A DNA stretch of 64,000 bases from Eledone cirrhosa. Lineage: Eukaryota. The position numbers were made by a program, and so were the translations under genes. Position 1 is the first letter of the stretch; every line of letters begins with the position of its first letter. The stretch is from the NCBI GenBank assembly GCA_964016885.1, contig OZ024745.1:70184001-70248000 (forward strand), in the 5' to 3' direction. Positions 15,487 to 49,350 of the stretch are shown here, piece by piece. Below the pieces are notes generated by a model. It was not told the origin of the DNA and searched no databases. It saw only the letters and a program-made list of their open reading frames with translations.

Positions 15487-15610
15487 GGGTGGTGAATTGG
15501 CAGTATCGGTAGAGGGTCAGACGCCATGCTTTCTAGCATAGTTATGTCCCTCAGTAATGTACTGGGTAATTGCTGGCCTTGTGCCAAACGTAGAAACAAT
15601 TATTATTATT
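15487..15610 (+). mobile_element. SINE with internal deletion
   Basis: Head GGGTGGTGAATTGGCAGTATCGG joined directly to tail CAGTAATGTACTGGGTAATTGCTGGCC. Confidence 0.85.
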
Positions 15611-19744: not shown

Positions 19745-19796
<52 letters not shown>

Positions 19797-20039
19797 AAGT
19801 ATGCATGTATACGTACATACATATATGTATACAGACGTACAGTAGCATGCACATATATATATATATACATATATACATACATATGCATACAGGTACACAT
19901 ATATATATGCACGTATCAGTTTAGCGGCGCTTATTATAACGTCGCTTTGTTCGTTTGTAAACAAACTGAACAGCCTGAATTTATGCCATACGGTGTTAAG
20001 GCAACCACGTCACCTTTTTGTTCAACACTGACACAGGAA

Positions 20040-20080
20040 CGATGTACTAGTTTCAAGCTTGTTAGCTATCATCAGCACCG
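20040..20080 (-). ncRNA. Minimal type-I hammerhead ribozyme
   Basis: Minus strand: CGGTG-CTGATGA-TAGCT(AACA)AGCTT-GAAA-CTAG-TA-CATCG. Stem I 5 bp including one GU, palindromic stem III, T/T mismatch at the base of stem II. Confidence 0.8.
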
Positions 20081-20511
20081 TTTACCCATCTGCCAGATAG
20101 TTGAACGTTCGAAAGTATATACTTTCCTTATGAAGATTAACGGCTGAGCAGCCTAATTTGCATATTGAGTTAGTTAAATCGGTCAGGCATACCGAAAACG
20201 ATAAATTGAAACAAAATGAAAACGAAATTTCATTTCTCACTCTTAGTATGGCACTTACTTAAATGTAAGTATGCATGTATACGTACATACATATATGTAT
20301 ACAGACGTACAGTAGCATGCACATATATATATATATATACATATATACATACATATGCATACAGGTACACATACATATATGCACGTATCAGTTTAGCGGC
20401 GCTTATTATAACGTCGCTTTGTTCGTTTGTAAACAAACTGAACAGCCTGAATTTATGCCATACGGTGTTAAGGCAACCACGTCACCTTTTTGTTCAACAC
20501 TGACACAGGAA

Positions 20512-20552
20512 CGATGTACTAGTTTCAAGCTTGTTAGCTATCATCAGCACCG
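20512..20552 (-). ncRNA. Minimal type-I hammerhead ribozyme (second unit)
   Basis: Identical to 20040-20080, 472 bp away. Confidence 0.8.
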
Positions 20553-20950
20553 TTTACCCATCTGCCAGATAGTTGAACGTTCGAAAGTATATACTTTCCT
20601 TATGAAAATTAACGGCTGAGCAGCCTAATTTGCATATTGAGTGAGTTAAATCGGTCAGGCATACCGAAAGCGATAAATTGAAACAAAATGAAAACGAAAT
20701 TTCATTTCTCACTCTTAGTATGGCACTTACTTAAATGTAAGTATGCATGTATACGTACATACATATATGTATACAGACGTACAGTAGCATGCACATATAT
20801 ATATATATATACATATATACATACATATGCATACAGGTACACATACATATATGCACGTATCAGTTTAGCGGCGCTTATTATAACGTCGCTTTGTTCGTTT
20901 GTAAACAAACTGAACAGCCCGAACGTTCAACTATCTGGCAGATGGGTAAA

Positions 20951-20991
20951 CGGTGCTGATGATAGCTAACAAGCTTGAAACTAGTACATCG
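20951..20991 (+). ncRNA. Minimal type-I hammerhead ribozyme (inverted unit)
   Basis: CGGTGCTGATGATAGCTAACAAGCTTGAAACTAGTACATCG read directly. Confidence 0.8.
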
Positions 20992-21309
20992 TTCCTGTGT
21001 CAGTGTTGAACAAAAAGGTGACGTGGTTGCCTTAACACCGTATGGCATAAATTCAGGCTGTTCAGTTTGTTTACAAACGAACAAAGCGACGTTATAATAA
21101 GCGCCGCTAAACTGATACGTGCATATATGTATGTGTTCCTGTATGCATATGTATGTATATATGTATATATATATATATATGTGCATGCTACTGTACGTCT
21201 GTATACATATATGTATGTACGTAAACATGCATACTTACATTTAAGTAAGTGCCATACTAAGAGTGAGAAATGAAATTTCGTTTTCATTTTGTTTCAATTT
21301 ATATATATA

Positions 21310-23169
21310 TTGGTAAACGGAAAAGAAAATGCTGACAAATTGTTCACAGTGAAAAATAGTTTAATTAGGAATAAGTGAGAATTAGTAATAGTATTGGTTA
21401 GTATTCAGTTTTGGTTTAAAGTTTTACCGGTTGCGCATTTCTAATGCTTTTCAAAAATAATTTTCAATAACAAACTCTACAGGCAGACATCTGGGACCGC
21501 TATGGGAACGAAAACAACCCCCACTTATACCAACCTAGTCATGGAATACCTGGAAATCACCCTCTACACTAAAGTCCTAAGCAAATTGGGAAACACTCTC
21601 CACTTACACATAGAAAGGAACTGGAAGCGATATCTAGATGACTGCTTCATCCTTTGGCACGAAAATGTCGAGAAACTTAAAGAATTTCACACCCTTATAA
21701 ATGGGCTCAACACGAATATTAACTTTACGATGGAATACAGCCATCAACAACTCACCTTCCTCGACATCCTCATTAATATCCATAACAAAAAATAGAAACA
21801 GACATATACTACAAGCCCACAGATTCCAAGCAATATCTTCCTTTCAACTCTTGCCACCCTAGACACGTTAAAATTAATATTTCCTACAACTTAACCAAGA
21901 GAATATGTACTATAGTCTCCAATAAAAACACCTGCTACTTACGGCTACAAGAACTAAAGGACACACTCATAGGCAGGGACTACCCTGCATCACTAATTGA
22001 CAATGGAATCCAACCTGCCCTAAAACTCAGTACCCAGGACCTTAGACACCCTAAAGTAAATCAACCGAAACTAAAAGCTCTTCCATACATCTCCACACAC
22101 AACCCACTCAACAATGAGGCCTTTGACACCATCCTTCAGAACATCCCTGTGTTAAAAAAGGACCATAGAATGAACCAAATCCTATGAACACACGATATCA
22201 TAAAGAGCAAAAGACATTCTAAGTCAATGAAAAACATCCTAACACATGCCAAAGTACTGCCAACCACAACAACGAAACCCACAGTAAAAAAATGCGATAG
22301 ACCCAACTGTGGCATATGCATCAAGCTAATAGAGGGTTCGGAATTCTATTTCAAAGAAGGACAACGTTTTACAATAAAACACAATTTCATATGCGCATCA
22401 GAAAATCTGATATATGTATTAACTTGCTCAGGTTGTCGAGAACAATACATAGGCCAGACCAAATGAATCTTACTTTATTAAAAAATACGGACCCCGTCTA
22501 AACACTTCTCCCTAAGATGAACCCACAACATACACACGTCAACATACATACCTACATCAGCATACATCTCTATCCACATATAAACACAATGACATACGTA
22601 ATCACACATGTTCTATGGTGCAACACAAATATACACACATTTGCATACCTTTTGATGTCTATAGATATAAACGTGCCGACACACACACATACATAAACGC
22701 ACACATGCATTGCACATTGATGGGCACATACATATTTGTACACAAGTATTCCAATACGGCAAGGCCTAATGGATTCCCCTTGCAGTACGTACAATCTGGA
22801 CACTCACACACACCTTGGTATTATGCCAATACTATATATCATTTCACACGTTTTATTATGAAGGTTTTTGATGTTATATTGAGAGAATCGTTTTTACTGA
22901 AAATATCGAATAATGTACACCATTTTACCAGTATCACAAAAATAAATACTGGTCCACCCACACACACACACACATATATACACACACACACATATATACA
23001 CACACTACACACGCGTACATTAACATACAAAGAGACATATACACACACACACACACACACTTCTCCGTATAAGACAAGAGCTGAGAAATATCTTTTAACA
23101 TGTTAAAATATCCCCCGCACACTTACAGACACATTCCTACTGACCATCCCTCTACCACGAATTAGTCTG

Positions 23170-23220
<51 letters not shown>

Positions 23221-23592
23221 TACACACACACACACACTTGTCTTAATAAGCATTTGAACTGTCAACAGGCTGCGGTTCGCACACACATCCCTGCTGACCA
23301 TTATCACAACAACGAACCTCTTTACTACTACTACACACACGCACACACACACACATATTTGTTTTGAAAGACTTATTTTTCAGTGACTTCTCAATCAGCC
23401 GACACAAACCTACATTTGGCGCAAAATCAATTTTTAACATTCACATGACCTCTACTGACCAATCAAAATTGTTTTGACCACAAGAATTTTTGCAACACGA
23501 ATTGGCGCGAAACTGATTTTAGTACCTCTGGAGCCACTTTTCTCACATAAAAACAGGTAGAATTTCCAAAACTAATCAGATTAGAGCAAACA
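21310..23592 (+). mobile_element. Penelope-like retroelement (Neptune-like), 5'-truncated, with an inverted 3' tail at its 5' junction
   Basis: RT and GIY-YIG remnants at 21462-22466; 3' region homologous to 10930-11950; 21310-21464 is the reverse-complemented element end. Confidence 0.9.
21462..22466 (+). pseudogene. PLE reverse transcriptase C-terminal half, thumb, Cys linker and GIY-YIG N-terminus (disrupted)
   Basis: NNKLYRQTSGTAMGT..PTYTNL, WKRYLDDCFI, FLDI, TDIYYKPTDSKQYL..SCHP, KKCDRPNCGIC, NLIYVLTCSGCREQYIGQT. Frameshift near 21790, stop near 22186, rest of the endonuclease missing. Confidence 0.92.
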
Positions 23593-24299: not shown

Positions 24300-24462
24300 T
24301 AACATCGGTAGAGGATCGGACGTCATCCTTTGACGCATAGAGTTACGGCCCTTTCCATTCTGAGTTCAAATCTCGCCGAGGTCAACTTACGGGGTCGATA
24401 AAATAAAGTACCAGTAATGTACTGAGTAATTGCTGGGCTTGTGCCAAAAGTAGAAACAATTA
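24300..24462 (+). mobile_element. SINE copy
   Basis: Matches the family consensus, with a small core deletion. Confidence 0.85.
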
Positions 24463-24821: not shown

Positions 24822-25014
24822 ATAATTGTTTCTACTTTAGGCACAAGGCCAGCAATTTACCCAGTGCATTACTGGTACTTTATTTTATCGACCCCGTAAG
24901 GATGAAAGGCAAAGTTAACCTCGGCAGGATTTGAACTCAGAATGGCAAGGGCCGTAACTCTATGCGTCAAAGCATGGTGTCCGACCCTCTACTGATACTG
25001 CCAATCCACCGCCC
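24822..25014 (-). mobile_element. SINE, full length
   Basis: Reverse complement of the consensus, starting GGGCGGTGGATTGGCAGTATC. Confidence 0.92.
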
Positions 25015-25465
25015 TAAAATTTTTTACAGAATAATCACGGACAAATAGATGCAAAATTCAAATGATGATTTACGGGTATCTCATGTGAAACTTGGCATCA
25101 AAAAGAGAAAGCAAATATGTGGTTCTCTAGAAACCATATTTAAACAAATTTTGTATTTTGTAATTATTCTTATTGTGTTTCCTTAGAATGAATGGCTTGT
25201 CTACCGTAAGGTAGTTTTAATAGACTTTGTGTTGGTAAAGGGGATATTTGTACATATAAAATATTTATGCTGGTCCGCTAGAAGAAAGTTCATATTTGAA
25301 CATTTAGGGTAAACTATATATATATATATACGTGCCAAAAGACTCATTTACGTTTACATACATACACACAGACACACAAAACACATATTCTCTCTCCCAC
25401 ACATATTTCTTCTCTCTCTCTCTCTCTCTCTCTTTATATATCTATATATATATATATATATATAT

Positions 25466-26217
25466 ATGAAAAATATGGGGAGAAGAATACTGCATGGCTG
25501 CACATGGATTACATGTTATAAAATGAGTCCCTCATCAGTGATTTGCCAACGATCATTGGTATTTCATCGCATTAAAAATCATATACCTCACGTTGGTGCG
25601 ACAATAACTAAAATAAGTTATTGGGACAATTGACACGCGTAAAGCGAGTGAGACAAGTAAACAACACAGGGGAAAGCTAACCGAAGATGGAAAGAAAAAC
25701 AAGCAACATGGTTATTCTGTCAGCATAAACTGGGTGAATACATGAGCGTGTAAGAAACAGACCTTTCGCTAGTGAATCCGATGTGAGAAAGAAGGAAAAT
25801 CGGATTCGTAGCGAACGGGAGGAATTAAGAAGGGGAGAAACAGAGAGTGAGTGAGTGGAAGTGTAAGGAAGAGGTCAGTAGAGAGAAAGTGTTAACTGAC
25901 ATGACAGAGGGGACGAAAGTAAGAGAAACAGAGAGAACGAGGGAGCAGTAAGAGAGAAAGAGAGAAACATAGAATCGCAGTTTAGGTAAATATATGAAAA
26001 ATATGGGGAGAAGAATACTGCATGGTTGCACATGGATTACATGTTATAAAATGAGTCCCTCATCAGTGATTTGCCAACGATCATTGGTATTTTATCGCAT
26101 TAAAAATCATATACCTCACATTGGTGCGACATTAACTAAAATAACTTATTGGGACAATTGAAACGGGTAAAGCGAGTGAGACAAGTAAACAACATAGGGG
26201 AAAGCTAACCGAAGATG

Positions 26218-26220
<3 letters not shown>
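25466..26220. mobile_element. Non-coding element bounded by ~226-bp direct repeats (25466-25691 and 25994-26220)
   Basis: High-identity direct repeats with 528-bp period, embedded in (TA)n; CTGATGA on the minus strand of each repeat but no complete HHR fold. Confidence 0.7.
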
Positions 26221-26506: not shown

Positions 26507-26656
26507 TATATATATATGGGAGAGAGAGAACGAGCGAGAGAAAGAGAGACGTGGGCGGTTGATTACGTGGCATTGAGAAAATAGTGAATTCGAAGCGTTA
26601 GCATTTCAATACAAATGACCGACATAATAATAGTTGAGAAAATCTGATAGAATACT

Positions 26657-26845
26657 GAATTGGCAGTATCGGTAGAGGGTTGGACGCCATGCTTTCTAGT
26701 ACAGTTACGTCCCTTTACGGTCTGAGTTCAAATCCCGCCAAGGTTAACTTTGCCTTTCATCCTTACGGGGTCGATAAAATAAAGTTCCAGTAATACACTG
26801 GGTATTTGCTGACTTTATGCCCAAAGTGGAAACAATTATTATTGT
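26657..26845 (+). mobile_element. SINE, near full length
   Basis: A-box TGGCAGTATCGG, B-box GAGTTCAAATCCC, core and tail. Confidence 0.92.
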
Positions 26846-48758: not shown

Positions 48759-48807
48759 GTATGTATGTATACGTACATACATATATGTATACAGACGTAC
48801 AGTAGTA

Positions 48808-48847
<40 letters not shown>

Positions 48848-49283
48848 TACATACAGGTACACATATATATATATGTACGTATCAGTTTAGCGGACGTTTA
48901 TTATAACGCCCCCTTTGTCCGTTTGTAAACAAACGGACAGTCTGATTTGTGCCGTACGGTGTTAAGGCAACCACGTCAGCTTTTTGTTCAACACTGACAC
49001 AGGCACGATGTACTAGTTTCAAGCTTCTTAGCTATCATCAGCACCGTATACCCTTCTGCCAGATGGTTGAACGTTCGAAAGTATATACTTTCCTTATGAA
49101 AATTAACGGCTGAGCAGCGTAATTTGCATATCGAGTGAGTTCAGTCGGCCAGGCGCACCGAAAACGATAAGTTGAAAATAGAATGAAACGAAATTTCATT
49201 TCTCACTCTTAGTACGGCACTTACTTAAATGTAAGTATGTATGTATACGTACATACATATATGTATACAGACGTACAGTAGTA

Positions 49284-49327
<44 letters not shown>

Positions 49328-49350
49328 TACATACAGGTACACATATATAT
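48759..49350 (-). mobile_element. Second locus of the ~472-bp retrozyme-like repeat (about 1.2 units)
   Basis: Roughly 90% similar by eye to 19794-20265; ~110-bp terminal redundancy; HHR at 49006-49046. Confidence 0.85.
49006..49046 (-). ncRNA. Minimal type-I hammerhead ribozyme
   Basis: Same as 20040-20080 except one stem II loop base (AAGA versus AACA). Confidence 0.8.

Follow-up and report, generated by a model that had tools for sequence, protein, structure and literature searches.

Which enzyme spreads the retrozymes of animals, and whether its template is circular, are posed as open questions in both PMC7229834 and 10.64898/2026.07.22.740005. A tail and an inverted arm are known as features of Penelope-like elements (PLEs) (Craig 2021, 10.1101/2021.04.23.441226). 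In Frangieh 2024 (PMC11167929), the tail lies between two internal start sites of reverse transcription (RT), and the PLE protein cuts and extends both strands of AT-rich DNA. In two other hammerhead repeats, newt satellite 2 and Schistosoma Sm-alpha, the promoter falls inside the cut monomer, and transcription of the next unit needs the tandem arrangement (PMC2220036, PMC6765202).

Here, we analyze a 64,000-nt stretch of the Eledone cirrhosa genome (contig OZ024745.1, positions 70,184,001 to 70,248,000; "the window"), in which an original prediction had placed a hammerhead-bearing tandem as a candidate retrozyme. We consider it likely that this locus is a recent, ORF-less tandem insertion, copied into a (TA)n run by the RT and GIY-YIG activities of a PLE, probably from a circular monomer RNA. 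Its insertion ends bear the PLE signature, and the young PLEs of the same genome provide an internal control.

Architecture of the locus

As predicted, the locus holds about 2.4 head-to-tail copies of a ~472-bp unit: TRF reports a tandem at 19794-20923 with a period of 472 and 98% matches. The proposed inverted copy is also present, as a 383-nt arm (20920-21302) that is 99% complementary to 20201-20583; its own third hammerhead, on the plus strand at 20951-20991, had been overlooked. Viewed along the hammerhead strand, the locus consists of two arms that meet head to head near 20921 and both point outward to (TA)n, which is found at both flanks of the array. A descriptor scan recovered the cores of the two minus-strand hammerheads that had been placed at 20512-20552 and 20040-20080, and returned in the 64-kb window four hammerhead-shaped motifs, all belonging to what we call retrozyme family A. 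The unit is non-coding, as had been claimed, its only frames being low-complexity ones out of the TA-rich part. Core positions are numbered along the hammerhead strand, with core 1 at window position 20735; site A is the boundary preceding core 1, and site B is core 57-63. The features of the locus and its surroundings are as follows:

19794..20923, minus strand: arm 1, 2.4 tandem units, read from 20923 to 19794 and ending 3' at site A without a tail, next to (TA)n
20920..21302, plus strand: arm 2, inverted partial unit, 5'-truncated and ending 3' at site B with the tail, next to (TA)n
21240..21302, plus strand: 3'-terminal segment of arm 2
20500..20568, minus strand: extended type I hammerhead 1, core 20552-20512, putative cleavage predicted between 20517 and 20516
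20028..20096, minus strand: extended hammerhead 2, core 20080-20040, putative cleavage predicted between 20045 and 20044
20935..21003, plus strand: hammerhead 3, in the inverted arm, core 20951-20991
20045..20516, minus strand: predicted 472-nt monomer between the two predicted cuts, with a predicted branched fold that is 67% paired as a circle
20625..20636, minus strand: 12-nt U6/U6atac-type element, a candidate promoter element; second copy at 20153-20164
20587..20594, minus strand: TATA-like box, 43 nt away from where the 12-nt element starts; second copy at 20115-20122
20728..20743, minus strand: predicted small hairpin, the loop of which contains site A; further copies at 20256-20271 (minus) and 21232-21247 (plus)
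20264..20384, minus strand: TA-rich segment of the unit, a predicted long hairpin that holds the family's own (TA)n target
19746..19793 (left part) and about 21303-21311 (right part), no strand: (TA)n target
48759..49350, minus strand: older locus of retrozyme family A, 91% identical, hammerhead core 49046-49006
21303..23592, plus strand: neighbouring, separate element, a member of PLE family 2 that is decayed and truncated at its 5' end, and whose own inverted terminal arm reaches 21464

Elsewhere in the window, a short dispersed repeat (15493-15602, 24338-24462, 24858-24962 and 26656-26838) resembles a tRNA-derived SINE. Two 234-nt direct repeats (25459-25692 and 25987-26220), 96% identical and 528 nt apart, adjoin (TA)n in a layout that resembles a small terminal-repeat element.

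A young copy of a large family

The exact 30-nt hammerhead pattern has 25,198 matches in the 3.0-Gb genome, and the reversed control has none, which disposes of the possibility, raised with the original prediction, that the unit exists at only two loci. A sister family, B, has 2,600 matches genome-wide. If each of the 25,198 motifs stood for a unit of 0.4-0.5 kb, family A would account for an estimated 10 Mb or so of the genome. Units of these retrozymes are 420-550 nt long with a GC content of 0.35-0.38, and A1, A2 and B are diverged ORF-less units of a common layout. Among the 11 best-matching loci, the number of full units ranges from 1 to 101, spanning up to 52.6 kb; ten of these loci are ORF-less arrays of 2-101 full units, and the remaining one is a single unit. 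Our unbiased sample comprised the first 40 hammerhead clusters listed on contig C1 (the position-picked loci). One family B insertion (L037 3040-4420) is nested within a family A unit, in its TA run, and has the same two-end layout.

The window array matches its closest relatives at 99.5% identity and is a single young copy of a high-copy, protein-free repeat family. The many loci, together with the lack of a joined PLE ORF at the sampled loci and of a match to the terminal repeats (pLTRs) of three young PLE families, support its initial reading as a non-LTR retrozyme. The class itself is known; the family is a new member of the metazoan non-LTR retrozymes. In our literature search, the family, cephalopod retrozymes and tails in retrozymes were all undescribed (supplements, Dfam and Repbase could hold the family), and the words "hammerhead", "ribozyme" and "retrozyme" are absent from the main text of a 2026 octopus repeat annotation. 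The family seeds satellite-like arrays of more than 50 kb, and is easily overlooked and uncalled by Rfam. The genome also holds at least four other, unrelated hammerhead-like repeat families, some of them tandem or inverted (L122 6053-6726; L079 400; L082 6514-8845; L182 7060-7143; L183 4915-5001; L126 2292-2448).

Structure of the hammerhead

Our hammerhead model consists of a helix I in three segments, a helix II and a one-pair helix III, with 93.6% of alignment cells paired in a hand-picked set of 28 A1, A2 and B copies, against 31-48% in slid controls. Both sides have changed in 7 of the 20 pairs, much of this two-sided covariation stemming from two family B rows. One pair switches from G.U to U.G inside family A. 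The motif has the features of a canonical type I hammerhead: a CUGANGA / GAAA / UH core, a short palindromic helix III and an extended helix I with a loop. Helix II has 4-5 bp, with G10.1-C11.1 present in family B and a U.U in its place in family A. The original prediction had called the hammerhead minimal, which does not hold, as helix II is 4 bp plus the U.U and helix I is extended via an internal loop into two more stems. The minimal hammerheads of PLEs are described as having a long helix II (7-8 bp), a short helix I and a poorly defined loop 1 (PMC4209133); the helix II of 4-5 bp and the covarying extended helix I rule out that class. Judged by its sequence, the hammerhead is a canonical extended type I under the same definitions.

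A search of the window against Rfam, one of the checks that had been proposed, returned no hit at the gathering score, and gave weak Hammerhead_HH9 matches at the three motifs of the array, the best with 18.5 bits against a cut-off of 52 (E 0.24). TA-rich miRNA-like matches lead the E-value list of that search, and we took them as chance. The earlier suggestion that the tandem would allow two hammerheads to pair as a dimer is feasible by folding predictions: in the natural tandem of the window, the double-hammerhead fold is predicted to lie 0.9 kcal/mol above the unconstrained minimum. Folding of the whole unit gives a z-score of -6.3, and of -4.7 (sense) and -3.4 (antisense) when the TA palindrome is left out; since the palindrome inflates the former value, folding z-scores are weak evidence on strand.

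By analogy with other retrozymes, we infer that these hammerheads would self-cleave in a transcript. Two features associated with weak monomer cleavage in axolotl (PMC7229834) occur here as well, namely a U.U at the start of helix II (in family A) and a helix III of one pair. The largest array among the best-matching loci (G000:C3:12271878-12324502; L123, L085, L039-L043), with 101 units over 52.6 kb, has G at the cleavage position in every unit and is thus predicted to be inactive. That array also carries three further array-wide A>G changes and higher-order repeats. Contigs from three of four sequencing runs cover the unit, and are uninformative on RNA as the run type (DNA or RNA) is unrecorded.

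Insertion ends

By alignment, 40 of the 50 hammerhead-bearing arms at the 40 position-picked loci end at one of two sites, 17 at site A and 23 at site B, the other 10 ending elsewhere. Since alignment may assign too many ends to site A where a TA-rich stretch abuts a TA flank, we also made a strict motif count at the same loci, which gave 12 ends at A and 18 at B. Both sites lie beside (TA)n and are 60-63 nt apart, a distance that corresponds to the tail. A hairpin holding site A in its loop is predicted in A1, A2 and B.

The two kinds of end are strictly combined in inverted insertions. With strict motifs, all seven inverted insertions join an A end to a B end; with the alignment, six do so and two join B to another end, and A+A or B+B pairs do not occur. 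The inversions of family B have one end of each kind in 8/8 cases among 20 stretches, a count taken with a (TA)n filter, and so do all five long young arrays that we viewed at both ends, the window array included. The genome's PLE families 1 and 2 obey the same rule, in 9/9 and 5/5 cases, with tails of about 36 nt. Thus, the family shows what is expected of a PLE-type insertion: two alternative ends, an inverted 5' arm and an AT-rich target, the (TA)n nature of which means that a target-site duplication, which in metazoan retrozymes exceeds 4 bp when there is one, cannot be delimited.

Since the retrozyme and the PLEs of this genome follow a common two-site end rule, PLE enzymes have likely spread the family, and it is likely that a PLE enzyme produced these insertions. 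Mobilization by PLEs, which the earlier note had cited from the literature, thus gains direct sequence support from the insertion ends. An inverted insertion would record that priming took place twice, once for each strand and site. At core 66 (window 20670), which lies 3 nt beyond site B, five young arrays each have one unit with an identical T>C change, and a sixth array has it fixed; this position is likely a hotspot of copying errors.

Template form and array growth

Young arrays are 99.8-99.9% identical internally and 97-99.7% identical to one another, and carry markers common to all units of both arms. Array-wide variants differ in spectrum from those of single units, A>G or T>C making up 16/32 of the former against 31/176 of the latter (p 0.0003), which suggests that array-wide variants predate insertion. 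The "private" deletion of array C789 also occurs at L179, so that some array markers are lineage markers. Editing of the template from A to I, suggested by four array-wide A>G changes in array C3b, was rejected for lack of a general strand bias (10 A>G against 6 T>C array-wide, p 0.46; 13 against 18 in single units). The homogeneity of young arrays fits repeated copying of one monomer, and also the copying of a young, uniform multimer; we lean slightly towards a circular template.

The alternative that survives best, and one that we hold to be unlikely, is that a PLE mobilizes the family from uncut linear transcripts of several units, with a weak or idle hammerhead and no circle. The 5' junctions agree with it, as they show no pile-up where the cut is predicted, with 20 there and 17 at a control position; cut linear monomers are thus not a favoured template, and the genome bears no footprint of cleavage. 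Insertion by the PLE studied in vitro did not require the hammerhead (PMC11167929), and eight of nine predicted Xenopus retrozyme dimers stayed uncleaved in vitro (10.64898/2026.07.22.740005). A homogeneous source array would likewise yield homogeneous daughters. An idle hammerhead, however, sits poorly with the conservation between A1 and A2, which is highest in the hammerhead block (93%, against 55-79% for most others), and with helices kept through paired changes. Except for one change that recurs, single-unit variants are each confined to one of the six young arrays that we compared; ordered copying of a source array could have made them common to several. Moreover, an arm of 44 units would demand 44 uncut ribozymes in one transcript.

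A second alternative, along the lines of the 2026 preprint, is a satellite that grew by unequal crossover at the DNA level from single inserted monomers. Old arrays (C3b, C7) do contain periodic shared variants, which indicate subsequent DNA-level expansion, and a young 48-unit array shows one shared change at a spacing of 10 units. Against this origin, the loci are dispersed over many contigs, mostly with 1-3 hammerheads per arm, their A and B ends are fixed beside (TA)n, and young inverted arrays hold several identical units in both arms (in array C2a, 13/13 TA-rich segments are identical). Satellite growth accounts for late expansion and not for spread; as an explanation of the family, we find it improbable.

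Penelope-like elements of the genome

We recovered three young families of PLEs from the genome, whose open frames measure 777, 784 and up to 785 aa. We found RT in families 1 and 2 and GIY-YIG in family 2, and a Cys motif precedes GIY-YIG in both families 1 and 2. A Cys motif in this position is assigned to Neptune and Nematis in Craig 2021. Family 1 (L076 1176-2456) also has a second, upstream frame of ~427 aa that overlaps the RT frame and has no Pfam match, and a long, microsatellite-rich 3' region. Families 1 and 2 contain hammerhead-shaped motifs of their own with altered cores (UUGAAAA for CUGANGA, and in family 2 also GCAA for GAAA), which are identical in all young copies viewed (L075 945 and 5882; 3' regions of L117-L122).

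None of the terminal regions of the three families matches the retrozyme unit, the far 3' end of family 3 being known from one locus, and we reject these families as sequence donors. Similarity of the tail to families 1 and 2 is not significant (14 tests, best p 0.14), and neither is that between site B and one end of family 2 (p 0.14-0.72), which we discarded. The PLE adjacent to the window array (21303-23592) is ~95% identical to intact family 2 copies over the ORF and carries a deletion in the GIY-YIG part. It was rejected as a parent, being an older family 2 copy with an unrelated terminal repeat of its own; most likely, the array entered the TA run at the end of this PLE copy.

That the unit is merely the pLTR of some autonomous PLE, and the arrays its truncated ends, is very improbable: the ends and inversions are of PLE type and the PLE families examined number three, yet a PLE ORF is joined to the unit in sense at 0 of the 40 position-picked and 0 of the 11 best-hit loci, arrays of up to 101 units are ORF-less, and A1, A2 and B diverge as ORF-less units of equal layout. 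The original prediction had named this outcome as one that would count against it, and neither the position-picked loci nor the termini of the three young families point that way. At 4 of the 40 position-picked loci, PLE-related pieces lie at a distance of at least 1.6 kb.

A candidate promoter

Conservation between families A and B peaks in core 99-146 (75%), a block that starts with a 12-nt element, upstream of the hammerhead. Three unlinked types of U6 promoter and the best U6atac gene carry the same element at -77 to -79, each together with a TATA at -30; it is lacking from most lower-ranked U6/U6atac matches. A matrix of these four host promoters scores A1 at 15.7 and B at 17.0 bits, within the range of the genes themselves in leave-one-out scoring (13.4-22.8), and this level is reached at one of 671,074 background positions. 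Two A2 copies score just 7.3-7.5, and U2 upstream regions and PLE repeats score low. The TATA-like box of the unit is 43 nt from the start of the 12-nt element, 4-6 nt closer than in U6/U6atac (47-49 nt), and so departs from the host spacing. A U2-type promoter was rejected, there being no element in common with U2 upstream regions.

Runs of at least four T on the sense strand of family A are confined to core 42-131, with none in the ~340 nt that separate the predicted start from the next tail. With this layout, Pol III initiating immediately ahead of the hammerhead would yield an RNA of ~350 nt ending near site B. A monomer would thus need read-through, against which the T6-T7 runs in A2 and older A1 copies argue. 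As read by eye, one non-inverted arm out of 18 has its 5' end at the predicted start. A working U6-type promoter in the unit is a tentative proposal, for which we put the chances somewhat below even. Independently of the retrozyme, the element at -77 to -79 and the TATA at -30 define host U6/U6atac promoters (L235, L236, L237, L287), and this upstream element could serve in guide-RNA expression constructs. Tandem U6 genes lie at G000:C19:31.78-31.84 Mb (~1.8-kb period) and tandem U2 genes at G000:C3:307.35-307.45 Mb (~2.2-kb period).

Discussion

In the mechanism that we prefer, copying by a PLE from a probably circular monomer, transcription would cover two or more units and may begin at the U6-type element that each unit carries. 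Two hammerheads, with the structure and covariation described above, would pair through their palindromic helix III and excise the 472-nt monomer, which a host ligase would close, as may be supposed from other retrozymes. A PLE protein would then nick both strands of a (TA)n run and start reverse transcription inside the RNA at A or B, the two sites at which the insertions end. One start would give a direct, 5'-truncated array; two starts, one per target strand, would give head-to-head arms, and might in this way produce the A end and B end that are paired in the inversions. Copying round the circle, or along an uncut multimer, could account for the several near-identical units in each arm. 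Old arrays, with their periodic shared variants, would grow further through unequal crossover.

It is conceivable, if doubtful, that all of these elements form one cycle, in which the retrozyme has a gene-external promoter of U6 type that is kept through the hammerhead and the circle, and in which the PLE starts once per site and strand. Through read-through and double cleavage, the monomer would come to include the promoter, which the PLE enzyme, copying in rolling-circle fashion, would then set before the next unit. If this is true, tail and inverted arm would in all EN+ PLEs be the products of a single two-primer event at structure-defined sites, and the family would offer a small, ready substrate on which to examine both the two-primer model and a circular RNA template in target-primed reverse transcription. 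The strict pairing of A with B in inversions amounts to a testable statement on general PLE chemistry, and the intact PLE frames, the 472-nt substrate and the two predicted start sites make for a straightforward test in vitro.

Comparison with known systems

The family resembles the metazoan non-LTR retrozymes of coral, mussel and axolotl (Cervera and de la Pena 2020, PMC7229834) in its ORF-less tandem with one type I hammerhead per unit, its GC content under 45%, its thousands of copies, its branched predicted circle and its coexistence with PLEs. Helix III is like that of HHR_Amex1, and the U.U at the base of helix II like that of HHR_Amex2. The unit, however, is 420-550 nt long, compared to 150-450 bp there, and the strict (TA)n target, the two fixed ends, the 60-63 nt tail and the A+B inversions set this family apart; the words "tail" and "inverted" do not occur in the main text of that paper. 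Circles were demonstrated in that study and are predicted from sequence here. The vertebrate retrozymes of Li, Clavereau and Pollet 2026 (10.64898/2026.07.22.740005) likewise come as monomers, dimers and multimers, and are proposed to be non-autonomous PLE derivatives. Their link to PLEs consists of co-occurrence and of pLTR homology in Xenopus, whereas here no pLTR homology was found with the three young PLE families and the link lies in the insertion ends. In the text of that preprint, no mollusc is sampled, and "tail" and "promoter" are absent.

Newt satellite 2 and Schistosoma Sm-alpha (PMC2220036, PMC6765202) share with this family a tandem hammerhead repeat with a promoter of small-RNA type, a candidate one here. 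The newt promoter is of snRNA type and used by Pol II and that of Schistosoma is a Pol III promoter; our candidate element matches the upstream regions of U6/U6atac, not of U2.

In contrast to EN+ PLEs (Craig 2021, 10.1101/2021.04.23.441226; PMC11167929), the family has no ORF, and its tail measures 60-63 nt rather than 30-40 nt. It differs from the PLEs of its own genome in having no match to the terminal repeats of the three young families, and in a catalytic core that is intact in the retrozyme and altered in PLE families 1 and 2. With EN+ PLEs, it shares 5' truncation, the inverted 5' arm, a tail at one end only, insertion at (TA)n and a hammerhead in the repeat.
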